A stretch of DNA of 11,118 nt, taken from NCBI GenBank assembly GCA_019115185.1, contig DXDZ01000064.1, positions 1 through 11,118 on the forward strand, read 5' to 3'. Below, piece by piece: positions 1,188 to 11,007 of the stretch (the first letter of the stretch is position 1; the number at the start of each line of letters is the position of its first letter). The DNA comes from Candidatus Agathobaculum merdipullorum. Its GTDB lineage: Bacteria > Bacillota > Clostridia > Oscillospirales > Butyricicoccaceae. Below the pieces are notes generated by a model. It saw nothing but the letters and a program-made list of their open reading frames with translations. It was not told the origin of the DNA and ran no database searches. The position numbers and the translations under genes were made by a program.

Positions 1188-2030
1188 ATGGTGATCCATG
1201 TTGTTCAGCCGGGGGATTCCCTGTATCGCATCGCGCAAGCCTACCATGCGCCGCTCCAGCTGCTGATCCAGCAGAACGAGCTGCACGAGCCTTACCGGCT
1301 CACGCCCGGGCAGACAATCGTCGTGCCGCAGCCCGTGCAGGTACATACCGTCCGGCAGGGGGATACGCTGTCCGGCATTGCCGCGCAGCATAATACGACC
1401 GTGCTGAAACTGCTGCAAAACAATCCGCAGCTCGGCGGTGGGGACCGCATCTGGCCGGGACAGACGCTGGTGATCTCCTATGGCCCCAAGCTGGGCACGT
1501 TTGCGGTCAACGGCTATGCGTATCCGAACATTGACCAGCGAGTTTTGCGTAAAACGCTGCTCTATCTAACGTACTTATCGGTGTTTTCCTACGGATTTGA
1601 CAGTCTGGGCCGCATCCTGCCGCAGAATGCGGAGGCGCTCACGCGCATGGCGCGGCAATACGGCGTGCTGCCGCTGCTGGTGCTGACGACGCTCGGCGAG
1701 GACGGTCAGTTTTCGGGCGAGCGGGCGCAGCAGCTGTTGCGCGACCCGGTCGCACGCGGTGCACTGATTGAAAATCTGGCACAGACCATCGCGGCGCAGG
1801 GCTTCGCAGGGGTGGATATCGACTTCGAGTATATCCCGTCCGAGGATGCGGCGGCCTATGCCGACTTTGTCCGCGCGGTGCGCGCGCGGCTCGAGCCGTC
1901 CGGGCTGACGGTCATGGTCGCGCTCGCGCCCAAGACCTCGGCCGACCAGCCGGGGCTGCTGTACGAGTCGCACGACTACGCGGCACTCGGCGCGGCAGCG
2001 AACGATGTACTGCTCATGACGTATGAATAA
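1188..2030 (+). CDS. LysM-LysM-glycoside hydrolase family 18 protein (YaaH/SleL-like spore peptidoglycan hydrolase), 5' fragment truncated by prophage insertion
   Basis: ATG 1188 follows GGAGAAAGGTGG. Two LysM repeats (VVQPGDSLYRIAQAY..., HTVRQGDTLSGIAAQH...) precede a GH18 region with catalytic GVDIDFEY. The ORF ends ...NDVLLMTYE + TAA (2028-2030), inside the conserved GH18 MxYD/E motif and exactly where GC-rich coding sequence gives way to AT-rich DNA. The rest of the barrel is missing. Confidence 0.8.
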   Translation: MVIHVVQPGDSLYRIAQAYHAPLQLLIQQNELHEPYRLTPGQTIVVPQPVQVHTVRQGDTLSGIAAQHNTTVLKLLQNNPQLGGGDRIWPGQTLVISYGPKLGTFAVNGYAYPNIDQRVLRKTLLYLTYLSVFSYGFDSLGRILPQNAEALTRMARQYGVLPLLVLTTLGEDGQFSGERAQQLLRDPVARGALIENLAQTIAAQGFAGVDIDFEYIPSEDAAAYADFVRAVRARLEPSGLTVMVALAPKTSADQPGLLYESHDYAALGAAANDVLLMTYE

Positions 2031-2045
2031 GTTATTTTATGATAC
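2021..2045. other. Candidate att junction (attL/attR core) of the prophage
   Basis: Imperfect inverted repeat GTATGAATAA (2021-2030) N6 TTATGATAC (2037-2045) at the composition break, 25-50 bp from the recombinase stop codon (2070-2072). The exact crossover dinucleotide cannot be determined from one junction. Confidence 0.4.
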
Positions 2046-2069
2046 ATACAATTGACCGGCTAAGGTTTA

Positions 2070-3620
2070 CTATTCAAATCGTCGTTCGATTTGGATATAG
2101 ATGGTTGCGTCGCCAGCACTGCGCTCGGCGGCGTTTTTTTCGTATGTGATGCGGCTGACTACACTTTTCAGCAGGTCGTTTCGCTCCTGCGCGGTCGCGG
2201 CGTTGGGATAGGCTTCGATCACATGCTCCAGACGCGGGCGCATGGCAGGTGCGCCGCGGCGCTCTTGGTCGATTGCCAGCGCGCGGGCGCTGGCCTTGGC
2301 AAGTGCGCGGTCCAGCTCGGCGAGCTGGCTGTCCAGTTGGCGGCGGCGGGAAACGAAATACTCCGGCGTGTAGACCTCCTGCTCGACCAGCTCGGCGGCG
2401 CGGTCAAGCTGTGCGCGCAGCTTGCGCTGGGCGGCGTGGATCGCGCGAATCTCTTCGTGCGCCTGCGCGGCGCGTGCGTCCAGTTCGCGTTCGACTGTAT
2501 TCTGATGGTCGATGTCCACCTCGTACTCGGCCAGCCATAGCCGCAGCGCGTGCAGCACCGCGTCCTCCACGTCGGCGCAGAATGAGCTGACATTATTGCA
2601 GTCTGCCCAGCGGCAGTCCAGCCGACCGGTGCAGGGCAGGGCAGCGGCCGGTGCACCGTAGGTCATCACATGGCCGCACTTGGCGCAATACAGCAGGCCG
2701 ACAAACGGGTTTTTGAGTTCGTGGTTTTTCTTGAGCGGCAAGCCGGGGGTGTTGTCCAGCAGACGCTGCACGGTACCAAAATCCTCGTCACTGACGAGCG
2801 CTTCATGCAGGCCGCGCGCCTTGACGTAGTCATCTACATACCGGCGCGGCTTGGTCAGCACACCGTCGCGCACGGTGGGCTGCGCGGCCTTGCGTCCCCA
2901 TGTCACATAGCCCGCGTACAGGCAGTTGCGCAGCACGTTGCGCACCGACTGGGCGCTCCACGCGACACCAGCAGAGGTGCGTTCCCCGCGTGCATTGAGA
3001 CGGCAGGCAATGACATAGCAGCCGACACCTTGCAGACGCAAGTCGAAAATCTCACGCACGATTGCGGCCTGTGGCGGGTTTGGTTCAAGCGTGTAGCCTT
3101 TGCCGTTCCGCACCTTGACACGGAAATAGCCGTAGGGGTCGGTCTTGCCCATGTATTTGCCCTCTTTGACCGAGGCGATGCGCCCGGCGATCATGCGGCG
3201 CTTGATGGTCTTATATTCGCGGCGCGACATGAACAGGCCGAACTCGAAGTACTCCTCGTCGAATTCGTTGGCGGGGTCGTAGGTTTTTGCCGGGGTGATG
3301 ATGCGTGTGCCAGAGTATTTGAACGCCTGCGCGACGATGCCCTGGTCGATGCTGTCGCCGCGGGCGAGACGTTCGATCTCCATGACCAGCACGCCGTCCC
3401 ACTGACCGGCCTCGACCTCGGTCAGCAGCCGCTGCATCTGCGGCCGGGCGGCGATGGTTTCGCCCGAGACAATTTCCTCATAGATCCCGCCGATCTCCAG
3501 CCCCATGCGGCGCGCGAGTGCGAGCAGCGCGGCACGATGCCGGGCAAGGGTTTCGCCCTCGCCGCGGGCTTCGGCTTCGGCGTCCGCGCGCGATTTTCGG
3601 AGGTATATCAGATATGCCAT
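2070..3620 (-). CDS. Large serine recombinase (phage integrase)
   Basis: 516 aa. N-terminal resolvase-type domain (AYLIYLRKSRAD with presumptive nucleophile Ser10, VLVMEIERLARG), a recombinase domain, and a Cys cluster/zinc ribbon (YCAKCGHVM...PCTGRLDCRWADC). The long coiled-coil-like C-terminal region is typical of large serine recombinases. SD AAAGGTGA precedes ATG 3620. Confidence 0.9.
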   Translation of the reverse strand: MAYLIYLRKSRADAEAEARGEGETLARHRAALLALARRMGLEIGGIYEEIVSGETIAARPQMQRLLTEVEAGQWDGVLVMEIERLARGDSIDQGIVAQAFKYSGTRIITPAKTYDPANEFDEEYFEFGLFMSRREYKTIKRRMIAGRIASVKEGKYMGKTDPYGYFRVKVRNGKGYTLEPNPPQAAIVREIFDLRLQGVGCYVIACRLNARGERTSAGVAWSAQSVRNVLRNCLYAGYVTWGRKAAQPTVRDGVLTKPRRYVDDYVKARGLHEALVSDEDFGTVQRLLDNTPGLPLKKNHELKNPFVGLLYCAKCGHVMTYGAPAAALPCTGRLDCRWADCNNVSSFCADVEDAVLHALRLWLAEYEVDIDHQNTVERELDARAAQAHEEIRAIHAAQRKLRAQLDRAAELVEQEVYTPEYFVSRRRQLDSQLAELDRALAKASARALAIDQERRGAPAMRPRLEHVIEAYPNAATAQERNDLLKSVVSRITYEKNAAERSAGDATIYIQIERRFE

Positions 3621-3666
3621 AAAATCACCTTTTTTCAGTATATGGGGCGGGAAAATGGATAAAAAC

Positions 3667-3680
3667 AGAACATTTGTTCG
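3667..3680 (-). promoter_or_regulatory. Cheo-box-like (Gram-positive LexA/DinR) operator upstream of the recombinase gene
   Basis: The minus strand reads CGAACAAATGTTCT, a 13/14 match to CGAACRNRYGTTYC with a perfect GAAC-N4-GTTC core. It lies 47 nt upstream of the recombinase ATG and abuts a weak candidate promoter TTTTTA (3665-3660) 17 nt TATACT (3642-3637). Confidence 0.5.
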
Positions 3681-3691
3681 GTAAAAGCGGG

Positions 3692-3736
3692 TGTAAAAAT
3701 GCAGACCACAACAAACGGTGTTCGGTTGTGGTCTGC
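3692..3736 (-). terminator. Rho-independent terminator downstream of ltp
   Basis: Perfect 12-bp stem 3701-3712 / 3725-3736. On the minus strand it is followed by ATTTTTAC. Located 9 nt after the ltp stop codon. Confidence 0.75.
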
Positions 3737-3744
3737 GGGGTTAT

Positions 3745-4281
3745 TTAGTAGCCTGCGGCCGTGACGCCGTATTCGGCTTGCTCCTGCGTAAAGCCATCGT
3801 ACACAAGTTGGTCGATCAATTCTTGACGTGAAAACGACATCATTTCCAGATAGCTTTGAGCGGATTTGGCGGCCTGCTCATTCCAATCTGCGCCGCAATT
3901 ATCTACTGCAAATGTTGCATCTTCAGTGGAGTAGCCTTCAAATTCAAGCTGGCTAATTAGGCCGCTACGCGAAAAAGCTGTAAAAGAAAGATAGCTTTCA
4001 GCCGATCCCAATGCATTTTTCTGGCCCATAGTCATGGTGTCGGCGGGTTCTTCCGGCTCTTCAACCGGTGCAGCAGTCTGCTCAGTCTGCTGTCCATCTT
4101 CTGGCTCGGCATCTGTCAGCTCGGTTGTGGTGGTCTGCGTTTGCTCAGCGGTCTGCTGGTCATCGCCCTTGGTTTCGGTATCATCCGAAGGAGCAAACAT
4201 GCCGATAACAAGCACGATTACGATTGCCCATACCCACCAGCGTTTGTAAAACGGTTTTTTGGCCTTTGCTTTTTCTTCCAT
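3745..4281 (-). CDS. ltp: Ltp-family host-surface superinfection-exclusion protein (TM-anchored, two Ltp repeats)
   Basis: 178 aa. N-terminal TM helix (WWVWAIVIVLVIGMF, no lipobox Cys), an acidic T/E/Q-rich linker, then two ~48-aa repeats matching the Ltp repeat (QKNALGSAESYLSFTAFSRSGLISQLEFEGYSTEDATFAV; AAKSAQSYLEMMSFSRQELIDQLVYDGFTQEQAEYGV). SD AAGGGGGA precedes ATG 4281. Confidence 0.85.
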   Translation of the reverse strand: MEEKAKAKKPFYKRWWVWAIVIVLVIGMFAPSDDTETKGDDQQTAEQTQTTTTELTDAEPEDGQQTEQTAAPVEEPEEPADTMTMGQKNALGSAESYLSFTAFSRSGLISQLEFEGYSTEDATFAVDNCGADWNEQAAKSAQSYLEMMSFSRQELIDQLVYDGFTQEQAEYGVTAAGY

Positions 4282-4300
4282 GATAAATCCCCCTTAAAGA

Positions 4301-4328
4301 TTGACAAAATTAGCCAATCATGTATAAT
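4301..4328 (+). promoter_or_regulatory. Near-consensus sigma-A promoter driving a short rightward RNA
   Basis: TTGACA (4301-4306), 16-nt spacer, TATAAT (4323-4328). Its -10 overlaps a candidate leftward ltp promoter: TTCACA 4349-4344, 17 nt, TATACA 4326-4321. Confidence 0.6.
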
Positions 4329-4334
4329 GGTGTT

Positions 4335-4405
4335 GGAGGACTGTGTGAAACACTCCATATTTGCCCGTTCCGGTGGTGGTGCACTGGGACGGGCGTTTTT
4401 TATTT
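4335..4405 (+). ncRNA. Predicted ~70-nt small RNA (orphan promoter-terminator unit)
   Basis: The predicted start lies ~7 nt after the -10 element. A 13-bp terminator stem (4363-4375 / 4382-4394) has two G-U pairs that would be A-C mismatches on the opposite strand. It is followed by G TTTTTT A TTT (4395-4405). No credible ORF: the only candidate, GTG 4345, runs through the terminator. Confidence 0.5.
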
Positions 4406-4939
4406 CGGGTATCTGCCGTTTGGTAATTCATAGACAGCACAGGTGATTACCGCACTGGTAAACTCGTAATCACTCAGCTTTGGATCGTTCTCGTCCAGAT
4501 CCCAGCCACCTACTTGGATGAACGTCGTATGCTCAAAGCGTGCCAACACTTCAAGTCCATGTGTCAATCGCTTGAAAATCATGTCTTTTACATCGCGTTC
4601 AGATAAAGAAATATTACTGGCGGGAAGCCAGCCAATGTATTGACCATTATATAGAACCTTGACAGCTGTTCCGTCATACTTATTCTTTGGGTCAGCCTGC
4701 AAAGTCAGCCATTGGCCTTTCATGTTACGGTTAATCACTTTTTGCGGGTCAGAGCCGTCGTGAACATGATTAACGCCAGACAGAGTAAACTCCATCGTCC
4801 TCATTAGCTTTGTGCCATCTTTACTGGTTTGCGGAAAGTCTGGGATAGGGATTGTGTCATACTGGCGTTGTTCTCGGATACCCTTGACGATGCCCCAGAT
4901 GAAAAGAGCAACAATAACAATAACTATCAGTGTACACAA
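4400..4939 (-). CDS. Membrane-anchored HIRAN-domain protein (start uncertain; track ORF extends to TTG 5080)
   Basis: A TM helix (LIVIVIVALFIWGIV) is followed by KGIREQRQ and a domain with the HIRAN signature (SGVNHVHDG...GQWLTLQADPKNKYDGTAVKVLYNGQYIGWLPA...LEVLARF). The preferred start is TTG 4939, 9 nt after AAAGGGG. TTG 5080 has no SD and would overlap the rightward promoter at 5012-5040. Confidence 0.6.
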   Translation of the reverse strand: MCTLIVIVIVALFIWGIVKGIREQRQYDTIPIPDFPQTSKDGTKLMRTMEFTLSGVNHVHDGSDPQKVINRNMKGQWLTLQADPKNKYDGTAVKVLYNGQYIGWLPASNISLSERDVKDMIFKRLTHGLEVLARFEHTTFIQVGGWDLDENDPKLSDYEFTSAVITCAVYELPNGRYPK

Positions 4940-5011
4940 GGATTTCAACCCCTTTGCGGTGTCCAAATTGAACACCGATTTTTTAATGCTATGCAATATA
5001 TTGATTTGCCC

Positions 5012-5040
5012 TTGCCAAAACCCAAGATGTGGTGTATTAT
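5012..5040 (+). promoter_or_regulatory. Rightward promoter of the 49-aa ORF / anti-repressor-gene transcript
   Basis: TTGCCA (5012-5017), 17-nt spacer, TATTAT (5035-5040). It shares the pattern TTGNCAAAA...TGTATWATG with the promoter at 4301. Confidence 0.55.
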
Positions 5041-5080
5041 GAAAAACACAAACGCTTGTTCGGTTTCTGGAGGGGATCAA

Positions 5081-5230
5081 ATGACGGATCGAGAAAAATA
5101 TATGCTCAAGCTGATTCGGACTTCGGCTGATCCGTCAGCTGCCATGGAAAAGGTCAGGAAGATTCTTTCTTTTGATCCGTCTCCAACACACGAAGCGCAG
5201 CGTCCTGCAAGGCAGGAGAAGCGTTTCTGA
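5081..5230 (+). CDS. Small hypothetical protein (49 aa) convergent with and overlapping the repressor gene
   Basis: GGAGGGG (5069-5075) lies 5 nt before ATG 5081. Product: MTDREKYMLKLIRTSADPSAAMEKVRKILSFDPSPTHEAQRPARQEKRF. It has its own promoter upstream and an intrinsic terminator downstream. The last 77 nt overlap the 3' end of 5154..5495 on the other strand. Confidence 0.5.
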   Translation: MTDREKYMLKLIRTSADPSAAMEKVRKILSFDPSPTHEAQRPARQEKRF

Positions 5231-5495
5231 ACAATTCAAGCAGCTCGTTTTCTTCGGCGCTTAATCCTGCGTCCTCTTCGGAGGACGCATTTTTATTTTT
5301 CGCGCGCCCCATCAGAAAATCTAAAGAAACATCAAAGTAGGTTGCGATTTTTAGCTTAATATCATCGGGGACAGAGCGTGCACCATTTTCGTATTGAGAT
5401 AGCGTGTTGTTTTTAATGCCCAAAATTTTTGATAGTTCAATCTGGCTCAGATTTCGAGCATTTCGCAATGATGTGATTGTTTGGCCTATTGTCAT
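5154..5495 (-). CDS. XRE-family HTH repressor (CI-like)
   Basis: 113 aa. HTH_XRE core (LRNARNLSQIELSKILGIKNNTLSQYENGARSVP), a linker, and a C-terminal helix (ENELLELFRNASPALQDAALRVL). SD GGGAGGAG lies 7 nt before ATG 5495. Divergent from a Cro-like gene across an operator-rich region. Confidence 0.9.
   Translation of the reverse strand: MTIGQTITSLRNARNLSQIELSKILGIKNNTLSQYENGARSVPDDIKLKIATYFDVSLDFLMGRAKNKNASSEEDAGLSAEENELLELFRNASPALQDAALRVLETDQKKESS
5269..5300 (+). terminator. Plus-strand intrinsic terminator embedded in the repressor coding sequence
   Basis: Perfect 8-bp stem GCGTCCTC / GAGGACGC (5269-5276 / 5281-5288) with a UUCG tetraloop, then A TTTTT A TTTTT (5289-5300). There is no U-tract on the minus side. 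It coincides with repressor linker residues K66-A76 (KNKNASSEEDA). Confidence 0.65.
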
Positions 5496-5640
5496 TGCAA
5501 AGCTCCTCCCAATTTCTCATTTTGTTAAAGTATAACACATATTTTCAAAATGTGAATATCATTGCACAAAATGAGAAATAATACTTGACATTCGCAAAAT
5601 GAGAAAGTATAATAAAATCACGAATTGAGAAAGGAGGAGA
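5496..5640. promoter_or_regulatory. Lysis-lysogeny switch: divergent promoters plus reiterated operator 12-mers
   Basis: Rightward: TTGACA (5585-5590) 17 nt TATAAT (5608-5613), then AGGAGG. Leftward candidate: TTCACA (5556-5551) 16 nt TGT-TATACT (5537-5529). Exact 12-mer CAAAATGAGAAA at 5567-5578 and 5595-5606, with an inverted copy at 5513-5524. 10/12 copies at 5546-5557 and 5621-5632. Confidence 0.8.
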
Positions 5641-5892
5641 ATGATGATGAGATTGGATGTCGTTCGGACGGAAATGGGTATTACACAAGAAAATATGGCA
5701 AATCGGCTTAATATTGCCACTACAACATATTGCCAATATGAGAATGGAAAGCGAATGATTCCTCGAGATATTGCGGAAAAGGTTGCAAAGATTCTTTGTT
5801 GCCCCGTAGAAGAAATTTTTTTACCTGTAAAATTCACAATTTGCGAACATGAGGCGGACGAGCCGGAAAAGGAGGCGGGGCAAAGGAGGTGA
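5641..5892 (+). CDS. Cro-like XRE-family HTH protein
   Basis: 83 aa. HTH_XRE core (VRTEMGITQENMANRLNIATTTYCQYENGKRMIP). There are three tandem ATGs (5641/5644/5647) after AGGAGG (5633-5638), so the true start may be 5644 or 5647. First gene of the rightward operon. Confidence 0.85.
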   Translation: MMMRLDVVRTEMGITQENMANRLNIATTTYCQYENGKRMIPRDIAEKVAKILCCPVEEIFLPVKFTICEHEADEPEKEAGQRR

Positions 5893-5898
5893 GAGAGG

Positions 5899-6015
5899 AT
5901 GAAGAAAGAAAAACCCCACTTGCGGCTACAAGTGAGGTTAAACCAGACTTTCGCCGAATTTACGGAGTGCATGCCATGCATCGCTGCATGGCAGGGCGAG
6001 CGTTCACCTTCTTAA
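5899..6015 (+). CDS. Hypothetical mini-protein (38 aa)
   Basis: AGGAGGTGA (5884-5892) lies 6 nt before ATG 5899. Product: MKKEKPHLRLQVRLNQTFAEFTECMPCIAAWQGERSPS. Its 3' end overlaps the minus ORF 5960..6253. Confidence 0.35.
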   Translation: MKKEKPHLRLQVRLNQTFAEFTECMPCIAAWQGERSPS

Positions 6016-8403: not shown

Positions 8404-8870
8404 GAACGTTTTCGCCGAAAACACTGGCTGAGATTCGCGACAGTTACCGTCGTGCTGCTGATCCAGATGAGCAGGTCTATGTATTGGCTGGGTTATATTT
8501 CTGTAACGTGGAGGATATACAGCGTGCGCTCGGATTGCCAGTAAGGAAACCATGGGAAAAGCATTCGTCAGTTCGCACTGTCCAGATTCCTACGCATCAT
8601 GCGTGGACAAAAACGCAGGACAAACGTCTCGCTATGCTCTATAAGCAAGGACTGAACATCGGAGAGATTGCCGACAAAATAGGGAACAGAAGGAAAGATG
8701 TGCAAGATCGGCTGTATGTGCTGCGTAAACTGGGCGTGATACAGGCGCGGCCCCGCTGTGACTGTGCCGCGCAGGGGATGGCTGTCGAGCTGGAAAACCT
8801 ATGCGACGCCTTGCGCGAACTGATAGCGGTGCTACGTGTACTGTCCGAGAAGGGAGGCGGCGATGCGTGA
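8400..8870 (+). CDS. Putative DNA-binding protein (GcrA/Myb-like HTH segment)
   Basis: 156 aa. The GTG start overlaps the preceding stop. The segment WTKTQDKRLAMLYKQGLNIGEIADKIGNRRKDVQDRLYVLRKLG resembles a GcrA-type or Myb-type HTH. Confidence 0.55.
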   Translation: MRTFSPKTLAEIRDSYRRAADPDEQVYVLAGLYFCNVEDIQRALGLPVRKPWEKHSSVRTVQIPTHHAWTKTQDKRLAMLYKQGLNIGEIADKIGNRRKDVQDRLYVLRKLGVIQARPRCDCAAQGMAVELENLCDALRELIAVLRVLSEKGGGDA

Positions 8871-9718
8871 ACTTTATCCTGAACACCGAACTGAGCCGCT
8901 GGCTAAGGGATGAGAAAATCGGCGGCGACCGTGAGGCGATCTTCCTGTATGCGCTCTGGACGTGGTGCGAGAAAAACGCAGCCAACGAGCATAACTACCA
9001 CGAGGGGCGGTACTGGTCGTACAACAGCCTGCGCGGCCTGACGCGCATTTTCCCGTGGACGAAGAGAGAACTTGAAAACACGGTCAACCGGCTGCGCGAC
9101 GCCGGTCTGATCCTGACCGCCAAACTCTCCAAAGACCCCAAGGACACGACGCTGTCTTACACGGTTATCGCGGAAAAAATAGGCGTTTCCCCGTTCAGGG
9201 AAACGGTGTCCCCCACGGGGGAAACGGTGTCCCCCACCGGGGACGCATCCCCGTCCCCCAGCGGTGAAACGGTGTCCCCGCACGGGGACAACCTGTCCCC
9301 CACGGGGGAAACATTAGATGAACAATATAAGACACATATAGTACTACAGGCAAATAAGAATAAACAAGACGCAAATAAGGACGGGCAGCAGGAAAATAAG
9401 CTGACGCCGCGGCAGGCCATGGAGCTGTACAACCAGATCTGCGTTGATCTGCCGCCTTGCATCCGACTGACCGACAAGCGGCAGCGCAGTGTGCGCGCGC
9501 TGTTCAAGAAGGGCATCACGCCTGAGCAGCTGGAAAGCTCATTCCGCATCGCGCAGTCGAGTGAGTTCTGCCGGGGCAAAAACAAGACAGGCTGGCGTGT
9601 TGACTTCGACTGGCTGCTGGACGAGAACAACATCGTCAAGGTGCTCGAGGGCAAGTATGGCGGCAGCGCCATGCCGCCGACCAAGCAGGAAGGGAGTGGC
9701 CGTAAATGGCTGAAATGA
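8867..9718 (+). CDS. Phage replication initiator / replisome organizer (contains ori iterons)
   Basis: The start is taken as GTG 8867 (GTGA overlap with the preceding stop), with GGGAGG 8852-8857 nine nt upstream. The C-terminal WRVDFDWLLDENNIVKVLEGKYG resembles the conserved C-terminal domain of Gram-positive phage replication proteins. There is an internal 7-aa/21-bp repeat block, and a DnaB helicase gene lies immediately downstream. Confidence 0.75.
   Translation: MNFILNTELSRWLRDEKIGGDREAIFLYALWTWCEKNAANEHNYHEGRYWSYNSLRGLTRIFPWTKRELENTVNRLRDAGLILTAKLSKDPKDTTLSYTVIAEKIGVSPFRETVSPTGETVSPTGDASPSPSGETVSPHGDNLSPTGETLDEQYKTHIVLQANKNKQDANKDGQQENKLTPRQAMELYNQICVDLPPCIRLTDKRQRSVRALFKKGITPEQLESSFRIAQSSEFCRGKNKTGWRVDFDWLLDENNIVKVLEGKYGGSAMPPTKQEGSGRKWLK
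9184..9310 (+). repeat. Iteron array (putative phage origin of replication) inside the replication gene
   Basis: GAAACGGTGTCCCC at 9200, 9221 and 9266. Degenerate copies at 9287 (GACAACCTGTCCCC) and 9239 (GGGGACGCATCCCC). Spacing is 21 bp or multiples. Inverted repeat CGTTTCCC/GGGAAACG at 9184-9191/9198-9205. An AT-rich tract follows at 9311-9400 with reiterated AAATAAG. Confidence 0.7.
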
Positions 9719-11007
9719 TGGAGCTGTACCAGCAGGCCGAAAACAGTGTGCTGGGCGTGCTGATTGCCGAGGCCGAGGTGAACGCCGCCGAGGTGTTCTC
9801 GCGGGTAAAGCCCGAGGACTTTGTCACCGGCATCTCACGGTCGATCTTTGAGACCTGCCGCGAGATGTACCGACAGGGCGATGCAATCGACCCGCTGACC
9901 GTCAAGGCAGCCTGCGGCAGCGAGTACATGGCGTGGCTCAAGGAGTTGGACCTGATCACGCCCAGCTCGCGCTACTGCTCGGCCTATGTGGACAAGCTGC
10001 TTGAGCTGTCCAAGCGCTACCGGCTGCAAAAGCTGTTCCGCGAAGCGCTCGACCAGAACCTTGCAGGCGTGCCGATGGAGGAGCTGATCGGCAAGGTTGA
10101 GTGCATGAACGAGGTGCTCGCGGCGGACAACGACCGGCGCAGCCGCACGATGAAAGACTTGATATTTGGCTTTTTCAGCCGCGTCGGACAAAAGCGTACA
10201 TTTCTCGATTGGGGCTTCGACGAGCTCAACCGCTATGTCAAGGTCAAGCGCAAGCACTATGTTGTCATCGGTGCGCGACCCTCGGCGGGCAAGACCGCCT
10301 TTGCGCTGCAAACCGCGATGTACATGGCGCAAAAGCACAACGTCACGTTTTTCTCGCTGGAAACCGATGAGGAGACCATCGAAGATCGCATCATGGCGGC
10401 TGCTGCCTGCATCGATATGGCGCATATCCAGTCCGGCGAGCTGAGCGAGGACGAGCTGCGGATGCTGGTCGAGAAAAAGAGCACGCTGCTCGACCGGAAT
10501 TTTCATTTTTACGAAGCGACCGGCATCACCGCCGAGGAAATCCGCGCGGTGACGAACCGGAACAAGTCGGACGTGATCGTGATCGACTATTTGCAGCTCA
10601 TCCGCGCCCGTGGGCGGCACAAGGACGAGTACGGCGAGATCACCGAGATCACGAAGGCCTTGCAGCGGCTGGCAAAAAGCGGAGTTTGCGTGATTGCACT
10701 CAGCCAGTTGTCCCGCGGCGGCGAGGGCATGAGCGCGCTGCGCGGTTCCGGTCAGATCGAACAGGACGCGGATGTGGTCATGATGCTGGACTACCCAGAC
10801 GAAGATGACATCAAAAGCGAGGAGGAGAAGGCGGACTTCAAAGCGGGTCGCCTGCGCGTGATCGACATCGTTAAGAACAAAAATGGACGGCGCGGTCCGC
10901 TGCAGTTCTGGTTCTTCGGTGCGCAGCAGCGGTTCCTCGCCCAGTGGAAGGGCTTTTATCAGACCCAGCTGCGGATGATGGAGGACGAAACCGACGCATC
11001 CGCGTAA
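9706..11007 (+). CDS. dnaB: Replicative DNA helicase, DnaB family
   Basis: 433 aa. DnaB N-terminal domain (AENSVLGVLI...), Walker A GARPSAGKT, VIVIDYLQL, ALSQLSR and RGSGQIEQDADVVMML motifs. The start overlaps the end of the upstream gene by 13 nt. Confidence 0.9.
   Translation: MAEMMELYQQAENSVLGVLIAEAEVNAAEVFSRVKPEDFVTGISRSIFETCREMYRQGDAIDPLTVKAACGSEYMAWLKELDLITPSSRYCSAYVDKLLELSKRYRLQKLFREALDQNLAGVPMEELIGKVECMNEVLAADNDRRSRTMKDLIFGFFSRVGQKRTFLDWGFDELNRYVKVKRKHYVVIGARPSAGKTAFALQTAMYMAQKHNVTFFSLETDEETIEDRIMAAAACIDMAHIQSGELSEDELRMLVEKKSTLLDRNFHFYEATGITAEEIRAVTNRNKSDVIVIDYLQLIRARGRHKDEYGEITEITKALQRLAKSGVCVIALSQLSRGGEGMSALRGSGQIEQDADVVMMLDYPDEDDIKSEEEKADFKAGRLRVIDIVKNKNGRRGPLQFWFFGAQQRFLAQWKGFYQTQLRMMEDETDASA

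Follow-up and report, generated by a model that had tools for sequence, protein, structure and literature searches.

A membrane-anchored HIRAN-domain gene beside ltp in the lysogeny module of an Agathobaculum prophage: a candidate barrier to incoming DNA

We analysed a stretch of 11,118 nucleotides from Candidatus Agathobaculum merdipullorum (contig DXDZ01000064.1 of assembly GCA_019115185.1; hereafter the window), in which two leftward genes lie between the integrase and the repressor of a prophage. One encodes an Ltp-type superinfection exclusion protein and the other a protein, here called TM-HIRAN, in which a transmembrane (TM) helix is joined to a divergent HIRAN domain. The segment is best explained as a cargo slot of the prophage lysogeny module holding two stackable genes that lie on the repressor strand and were acquired separately, and TM-HIRAN is probably a second, independent anti-phage gene beside Ltp. 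In the explanation that we favour, and to which we give roughly even odds (about 0.5), TM-HIRAN would be a prophage-encoded barrier that captures DNA by its free 3′ ends as it emerges at the membrane, independently of the block imposed by Ltp. This role is suggested by conservation of the motif which forms the 3′-OH pocket of HIRAN domains, together with the position of the gene next to a phage repressor and/or integrase. The finding relates to known kinds of element, namely the exclusion or defence cargo genes of prophages and the end-binding HIRAN domains.

Identity and membrane topology of the two proteins

The main features of the segment are as follows.

3701-3736, (-) strand: intrinsic terminator after ltp, with a perfect 12-bp stem (GCAGACCACAAC/GTTGTGGTCTGC) and then a T-run on the gene strand
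3745-4281, (-) strand: Ltp-type protein of 178 amino acids (Pfam Lipoprotein_Ltp, phrog_4980, PDB entry 4EQQ)
4400-4939, (-) strand: TM-HIRAN protein of 179 amino acids, TTG start (family, AlphaFold2 and Foldseek evidence)
4403-4843, (-) strand: HIRAN-like domain of TM-HIRAN, residues ~33-179 (beta-barrel ~44-170)

A prediction made from the sequence before this analysis had placed both genes here, and they were found at these coordinates with the helix, the KGIREQRQ stretch and the quoted HIRAN signature all present. TM-HIRAN opens with a TM helix at residues 2-19 (the helix runs from 2 to 28 in the structural model), continues with the basic juxtamembrane KGIREQRQ, and enters a domain of ~145 residues through a conserved FP..D..G lead-in. 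We take the TTG at 4939 to be the correct start codon because it is preceded by a ribosome-binding site (RBS; AAAGGGG at 4949-4955), because homologues start at the aligned codon using ATG, GTG or TTG, and because the upstream extension (4940-5080) carries conserved non-coding signals. A 226-residue open reading frame (ORF) beginning at TTG 5080 was rejected on these grounds, as was the database gene model P0001 (198 amino acids), which also starts upstream of 4939.

Taken alone, the TM-HIRAN protein scores below the Pfam gathering threshold for HIRAN (PF08797; 16.2-16.6 bits against 24.7, E 0.007). Within its family, HIRAN is matched at E ≤ 0.1 by 25 of the 27 members, with a best E of 4.7e-6, and several relatives carry precomputed PF08797 matches. 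A profile of the family searched against the PDB returned HLTF HIRAN structures as its five best matches, at E ~0.03 and over a central stretch of 30 residues. The AlphaFold2 model (predicted local distance difference test score 92.9) has the HIRAN fold (a six-stranded beta-barrel with two helices), and all 17 of its best Foldseek matches in the PDB are HIRAN structures (3K2Y, 4S0N, 6KCS, 4XZG, 4XZF, 5BNH), with E down to 1.7e-4 and target-normalised TM-scores of 0.6-0.65. The next match, which is not a HIRAN, has an E of 0.3, leaving a gap of about 100-fold, and the matches of the model in a viral structure library are likewise annotated HIRAN. The assignment of 4400-4939 to a divergent HIRAN domain stands on this convergence of family, profile and predicted structure, and the original proposal is upheld even though the single sequence is sub-threshold.

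The predicted fold is the one seen in the HIRAN domain of HLTF (4S0N, 4XZF, 5BNH, 6KCS) and in the bacterial stand-alone protein lp_0118 (3K2Y). Whereas the HLTF domain is fused to a SNF2/RING remodeller, that of TM-HIRAN is fused to a membrane anchor, and it differs further in its additional FP..D..G lead-in and in a GVNHxHDGxDPQ loop which is ~9 residues longer. In HLTF, D94 reads the 3′-OH while Y72 and Y93 pinch the last two bases (PMC5773155, PMC4666394), and F142 is needed for duplex binding. The motif D-P-x-N-x-Y-D-x-x-A-[VI]-K-V is conserved in TM-HIRAN, with its Y and D corresponding to HLTF Y93 and D94, and a profile alignment sets N86, Y88 and D89 of TM-HIRAN against HLTF N91, Y93 and D94. 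Among 143 aligned representatives, these three positions hold N in 134, Y, H or F in 136, and D in 133 (93-95%). The sequence alignment to HLTF spans the central 30 residues only; by motif position alone, H58 probably corresponds to Y72, and 107 of 132 representatives have H, Y or F there. The predicted 3′-end pocket comprises H58, N86, Y88 and D89.

Ltp is clearly a member of its family. Its two repeats match Pfam Lipoprotein_Ltp (PF07553) at E 4.4e-33, with 113.6 bits against a cut-off of 23.2, and the protein matches phrog_4980 ('superinfection exclusion') at E 6e-50, while the structure of Ltp from phage TP-J34 (4EQQ) matches both repeats (residues 87-174) at E 1.6e-13. A lysine/arginine (K/R)-rich tail is followed by a TM signal anchor at residues ~15-32, an acidic Q/T/E-rich linker and the repeats at residues ~86-174. 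The helix has six K/R on its N-terminal flank and an acidic stretch of net charge -4 on its C-terminal flank, on which basis we predict an N-in/C-out topology with the K/R-rich tail in the cytoplasm and the repeats facing outside. The resemblance to TP-J34 Ltp of Streptococcus thermophilus extends from the two tandem repeats to the location in a lysogeny module, on the repressor strand and beside the integrase, and to the predicted tethering at the outer face of the cytoplasmic membrane. Unlike that protein, however, the window Ltp lacks a signal peptidase II lipobox and its cysteine (no Cys occurs in the first 125 residues and the only one lies inside a repeat), and its anchor is instead a TM helix that stays uncleaved, flanked by a K/R-rich tail and, towards the repeats, by a long acidic linker. 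The hosts differ too, the present one being a high-GC, gut Clostridia-like bacterium, and the target of TP-J34 Ltp is the tape measure protein. We considered and rejected a lipoprotein reading of either window protein, since neither has a lipobox. Genuine lipoboxes do occur among Ltp relatives (LLAAC in locus L007, LSAC in L011), and set against the TM-anchored window protein these indicate that the anchor type of Ltp is interchangeable. The ltp gene has the RBS AAGGGGG at 4289-4295, and its terminator hairpin recurs ahead of the integrase in locus L117. On its own, the window ltp would be an ordinary addition to its family, unusual in its anchor.

The charge bias around the Ltp helix is opposite to that of the HIRAN proteins. 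N-terminally anchored members of the HIRAN family have 0-2 K/R before the helix (0-1 when the short, homologue-supported start is used) or are acidic there, and have 2-6 K/R after it. Other relatives reverse the order: in L026, L027, P0024, P0032, P0034 and P0041, HIRAN comes first and is followed by a C-terminal TM helix without any signal peptide, and in L030, a HIRAN-first protein again free of a signal peptide, the C-terminus is a TM2 domain (Pfam TM2, E 1e-16). In such C-terminally anchored proteins HIRAN can only be inside. Two further relatives, P0023 and P0025, carry a bacterial PH domain (bPH) in place of the TM helix. The HIRAN domain of the window protein is thus predicted to be cytoplasmic and held at the inner face of the membrane. 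An outward-facing Ltp combined with a cytoplasmic HIRAN, as first proposed, is therefore the predicted arrangement, supported independently by the charge bias and by the tail-anchored and TM2-anchored relatives.

An optional gene in a variable slot

Wherever the flanking sequence is sufficient, the TM-HIRAN gene adjoins a phage XRE repressor and/or a serine or tyrosine integrase. This is true of the window and of every related locus with enough flank, including those of relatives with 30-42% identity (L026, L030, L031, L032), and bears out the integrase-repressor slot of the original prediction; the contigs of the distant representatives P0049, P0060 and P0041 are too short to inform on gene context. 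The partnership with Ltp recurs less widely, in approximately 5 of 13 distinct contexts. It comes in both gene orders and with differing anchors: Ltp may be downstream and TM-anchored, with two or three repeats (window, L001-L003, L013, L014, L010, L016), downstream as a lipoprotein (L007-L009), upstream as a lipoprotein with a 10-nucleotide gap (L011, L018, L019, L021, L028), or downstream and fused to a zinc ribbon beside a distant HIRAN homologue (L032). Intergenic gaps in L011 and L032 are 10-30 nucleotides. As background, a HIRAN gene is found within 3.5 kb in just 1 of 80 Ltp-seeded viral loci, and Ltp in 1 of 14 loci with a closely related integrase, both positives being the same contig as L011. 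Ltp is therefore enriched beside this HIRAN family, in at least three arrangements, and neither gene needs the other.

In the remaining contexts the HIRAN gene has other neighbours. These are a phrog_3989/BRCT protein (L004, 6603-7589; L005), an NYN-domain protein (L015, 3144-3839; L017), an RNase_T exonuclease with BRCT (L022, 2364-3544), a HigB-like/XRE pair (L011, 6680-7476; L020), or the integrase itself (L006, L023, L024, L026, L030, L031). Cargo differs from locus to locus in this slot between HIRAN and the integrase, and several of the occupants are, like HIRAN, directed at nucleic acids.

Three small elements surround the HIRAN ORF.

4301-4405, (+) strand: candidate antisense small RNA (sRNA) unit of ~70 nucleotides, convergent with the HIRAN gene and located between it and ltp
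4959-4975, unstranded: 17-bp palindrome GTGTTCAATTTGGACAC, directly upstream of the HIRAN RBS and at the left edge of the HIRAN insert
5012-5289, (+) strand: small opposite-strand unit between cI and the HIRAN gene, with promoter TTGCCA-17-TATTAT at 5012-5040, RBS GGAGGGG and terminator at 5268-5289

Loci whose repressors differ share conserved DNA to either side of the HIRAN ORF, and the ORF itself is bracketed by the palindrome upstream and by a 14-bp hairpin downstream. Loci L117 and L118 represent the corresponding empty site. In both, the palindrome directly abuts the hairpin and ~575 bp with the RBS and ORF are missing, while the rest of the module is kept; L118 continues with the BRCT protein gene that is also found in L004. 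TM-HIRAN has thus been gained or lost as a single gene, and as a presence/absence insert in a shared backbone it behaves as a prophage cargo gene (moron) and not as half of a fixed operon. The cassette acting both outside and inside the cell that was originally envisaged is partly supported: Ltp is enriched beside the HIRAN gene, but that gene also occurs without Ltp and comes and goes by itself. A 'HIRAN cassette' bringing along a small ORF, an operator and an antisense RNA of its own was also considered and rejected, because the flanks join directly in L117 and L118 without a HIRAN ORF and must therefore belong to the phage backbone.

The palindrome is unique in the window, where 0.03 occurrences are expected by chance, and is conserved across loci with the consensus GTGTTCAA(T/A)TTG(G/A)ACAC (window 4959-4975, L117 3287-3303, L118 1760-1776). 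Possible roles are those of an operator, of an RNA hairpin in the 5′-untranslated region or of an insertion hotspot. The sRNA unit starts from a promoter that matches the consensus at 12 of 12 positions (TTGACA-16-TATAAT, 4301-4328) and includes a 5-bp stem-loop, a 14-bp terminator hairpin (4362-4395) and a T-run that reaches the HIRAN stop codon. Conserved copies occur in L002, L004, L007, L010 and L013-L017 as well as in the HIRAN-less L117 and L118, and several HIRAN clades have none. RNAalifold folds the unit with 19 pairs, two of them compensatory, and Rfam holds no family for it. On the far side of the HIRAN gene, a 49-residue ORF at 5081-5230(+) (MTDREKYMLKLIRTSADPSAAMEKV...) overlaps the 3′ end of cI, with its terminator (5268-5289) inside cI. 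Ten loci that differ in their cI genes conserve its strong RBS, its ATG and its N-terminus (~30 residues, two helices), and in them it sits 138-152 nucleotides from the HIRAN start. It has no Pfam or PHROG family and may be part of the lysis-lysogeny switch.

The hairpin between the HIRAN gene and ltp has its T-run on the opposite strand, and no gene-strand terminator separates the two genes. Transcripts of HIRAN should consequently read into ltp and end at the strong 3701-3736 terminator, and the gene spacing suggests that the two are often co-transcribed.

Proposed capture of 3′ ends at the membrane, its alternatives and its precedents

According to the explanation that we favour, Ltp, with its repeats outside, would block DNA injection by incoming siphophages, as its homology with TP-J34 Ltp suggests. 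TM-HIRAN would be held at the cytoplasmic face of the membrane, by an N-terminal TM helix here and by a C-terminal TM helix or TM2 domain elsewhere, and would bind free 3′ ends as DNA emerges there, after the Ltp step. Candidate targets are the genome ends of phages, cos overhangs and possibly transforming single-stranded DNA, which enters 3′ end first in Gram-positive competence. Binding of the end would then hinder circularisation, replication or recombination of the incoming DNA. We do not read the two proteins as an obligate two-component system, and they would probably act independently at successive steps.

Several observations weigh against a barrier of this kind. A clear TM helix is missing from the close relatives P0009, P0010 and L012, and the protein may therefore be able to do without tethering. 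No enzymatic activity of HIRAN is known, and binding alone would have to suffice. The promoter scan found no consensus gene-strand promoter directly upstream of the HIRAN gene (weak candidates were seen by hand), and a convergent small gene separates it from cI, so that the gene is only presumed to be expressed in the lysogen. The enrichment of Ltp rests on few contexts, which are related to each other. Finally, the sole link to HIRAN in PADLOC is a candidate system in which HIRAN is partnered by HipA (PMC8262856), and there is no kinase here.

Four other explanations were weighed. A dedicated pair, the strong form of the original proposal, in which Ltp outside and TM-HIRAN inside form an entry-blocking cassette at the same injection site and each needs the other for full function, would account for an adjacency well above background (~5 of 13 contexts against 1 of 80 and 1 of 14), for its recurrence in reversed order, with lipoprotein and TM variants of Ltp and at the distant L032, and for the tight, terminator-free spacing. 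We think it improbable: TP-J34 Ltp works alone (PMC3952083), 79 of the 80 Ltp loci have no HIRAN gene, HIRAN is found with BRCT/phrog_3989, NYN or RNase_T+BRCT genes or directly beside the integrase, and the empty site in L118 records the gain or loss of HIRAN by itself. We are equally sceptical that TM-HIRAN is the sensor-effector or toxin of an abortive infection system, self-contained and acting when accumulating 3′ ends are bound, which would cluster the TM helices and damage the membrane; the antisense RNA would restrain its expression as in a type I toxin-antitoxin module. Many defence effectors do pair a sensor domain with TM helices, type I toxin-antitoxin modules with 3′-overlapping RNAs are typical of Firmicute prophages, and a conserved and strong antisense promoter-terminator unit does overlap the 3′ flank of this gene. 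However, the family exchanges one type of anchor for another (N-terminal TM, C-terminal TM, TM2, bPH or none), and these are free of polar pore-lining residues, which fits a tether better than a pore. Moreover, the sRNA unit persists at the HIRAN-less L117 and L118 and is missing from several HIRAN clades, and so is not dedicated to HIRAN, and type I toxins are far smaller proteins. Membership of a type I toxin-antitoxin system was rejected for the same reasons (179 residues against fewer than 60 for the toxin, and an sRNA unit that is also found at loci without HIRAN).

A role in the phage's own DNA metabolism, with TM-HIRAN anchoring or protecting the ends of replicating or excised genomes at the membrane and having no part in defence, appears less probable again. 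The p16.7 protein of phi29 consists of a TM helix and a DNA-binding domain and organises replication, and TM-HIRAN resembles it in architecture; the integrase lies on the same strand and has to act outside lysogeny as well, which means that strand by itself does not prove lysogenic expression. Yet the gene is dispensable, being absent from L117, L118 and 13 of 14 loci with a related integrase, its low G+C content and cargo-insert behaviour point elsewhere, and it occupies a slot that is classic for exclusion genes (PMC3952083) and not the replication module at 8.4-11 kb. That the HIRAN call is a false positive, produced by a small beta-barrel unrelated to HIRAN in which DP.N.YD occurs by chance, would explain why the window protein falls below the gathering threshold and why the profile-to-PDB match reaches only E ~0.03 over 30 residues. 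We regard this as very improbable in the face of the matches in 25 of 27 relatives (several with precomputed PF08797), the exclusively HIRAN structures among the top 17 Foldseek matches, the HIRAN annotations in the viral library and the matches to PADLOC HIRAN-protein profiles at E 1e-9.

The PADLOC matches are to the PDC-M03B profiles (best E 1.1e-9) and involve the HIRAN portion only, covering profile positions 106-185 (80 of 245). PDC-M03, a candidate system, is equivalent to HipI/HipN-type modules of a HipA-like kinase and a HipS-HIRAN protein (Gerdes et al. 2021, PMC8262856; PMC13245101). As proposed for TM-HIRAN, HIRAN would there be the DNA-end sensor of a conflict system, but the partners in the window are a repressor and Ltp in place of a HipA kinase, and the N-terminus is a TM helix in place of HipS. 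No HipA-family kinase lies beside the window gene or in any related locus. Assignment to PDC-M03 was accordingly rejected, the match being confined to the HIRAN domain without the kinase or a HipS-like domain.

The closest functional precedent for a membrane-bound, DNA-acting defence protein is, by analogy, ShdA of the Pseudomonas Shield system, a membrane-bound RmuC protein that alone protects against phages and lowers transformation (PMC10270631). ShdA and TM-HIRAN are both single genes whose products join an N-terminal membrane anchor to a cytoplasmic domain that acts, or in the case of TM-HIRAN would act, on DNA. They differ in that ShdA is an RmuC nuclease of a chromosomal defence island, whereas TM-HIRAN is non-catalytic and belongs to a prophage lysogeny module; neither Pfam nor PADLOC gave a match to RmuC or Shield in the window. 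Small prophage membrane proteins which stop DNA entry provide a second comparison, namely lactococcal Sie2009, HK97 gp15 and P22 SieA (PMC3952083, PMC10883804). These resemble TM-HIRAN as small, single-pass proteins of the integrase-repressor slot, the lysogeny module or the inner membrane, but they lack a DNA-binding domain and target the injection conduit or the tape measure protein. No sequence similarity of TM-HIRAN to Sie2009, gp15 or SieA was detected.

Prophage setting and distribution of the family

The window covers the left end of a prophage within a chromosome of ~60% G+C. Its other genes are listed here.

43-846: C-terminal part of FeoB, host gene
907-1077: FeoB-associated Cys-rich peptide, host gene
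1188-2030: LysM-LysM-GH18 host gene, in which GH18 stops inside the domain at profile position 181 of 317 (Pfam)
2070-3620, (-) strand: large serine recombinase, the prophage integrase (Pfam Resolvase, Recombinase and Zn_ribbon_recom; NCBIfam CcrC-/XisF-like)
5154-5495, (-) strand: XRE/cI-type repressor (Pfam HTH_3), sharing its strand with the HIRAN gene and ltp
5641-5892, (+) strand: cro-like gene, divergent from cI, with a perfect promoter at 5585-5613
8801-9718, rightward: DnaD/O-like initiator
9706-11007, rightward: DnaB helicase

A promoter-like site for the repressor was found at 5529-5556(-) in the promoter scan, and additional HTH regulators lie rightward of the cro-like gene. The G+C fraction is 0.37-0.45 across the repressor-HIRAN segment and ~0.5 over ltp, against ~0.6 on both sides (in the host flank and in the replication module); the low values in this region (3500-6000) are consistent with a foreign origin or with mosaic exchange.

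The serine recombinase sits at the junction with the disrupted host gene. The prophage interrupts the LysM-LysM-GH18 gene (window 1188-2069), whose product ends ...LLMTYE at the phage junction, immediately before a stop, and the remaining C-terminal half of the GH18 gene (MTYEWGY...) is found at 8840-9304 of L012, where the serine recombinase is 55% identical. Elements with large serine recombinases are known to split spore-related genes (SPbeta, skin), and the LysM-GH18 proteins YaaH/SleL and YdhD are spore proteins; the disruption of GH18 recalls these cases. Exchange of integration modules is evident from L001 on one side and L002 and L003 on the other. Their repressor and HIRAN products are 100% identical and their Ltp proteins 92% identical, but one contig has a serine recombinase at the GH18 site and the others a tyrosine integrase by the TatD/RelA/RecJ locus. 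Identical repressor and HIRAN genes on different integrases imply that integration modules have been swapped recently.

A word-indexed search collected 28 clusters of TM-HIRAN relatives at 90% identity, and an exhaustive profile search returned 409 clusters (50% identity) at E ≤ 1e-3, 52 of them at E ≤ 1e-10. A hydrophobic, TM-like segment occurs in ~77 of the best 145 clusters; among the 89 that match HIRAN columns only, it is N-terminal in 19 and C-terminal in 14. Close relatives are found in 1 of 185,579 species-representative genomes, that of Candidatus Agathobaculum pullistercoris, at another integration site. IMG/VR contributed two relatives and metagenome contigs 18, with the human gut named for several. 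A tblastn search of 50,697 deposited phage genomes gave zero matches, so the family is invisible to current annotation, and our literature search found neither a membrane-tethered HIRAN nor a HIRAN exclusion protein, in line with the original prediction, whose author was aware of no characterised example acting in exclusion or defence.

The family is thus sizeable, with 409 clusters, many of them membrane-anchored, and is common in the prophages of human-gut Clostridia. That membrane-tethered HIRANs constitute a new and widespread form of prophage immunity, seizing the 3′ ends of phage genomes and perhaps of transforming DNA on the cytoplasmic side of the membrane just after injection, and building a layered barrier with Ltp, is a tentative and rather unlikely proposal. 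L004, with the HIRAN gene, and L118, without it, are natural versions of the same lysogeny module and offer a ready-made comparison. Should TM-HIRAN prove protective, it would be the first stand-alone HIRAN domain of bacteria or phages to be given a function, and it would represent a new principle of exclusion in which a generic feature of incoming DNA, the free 3′ end, is sensed at the membrane in place of any particular phage protein or sequence.

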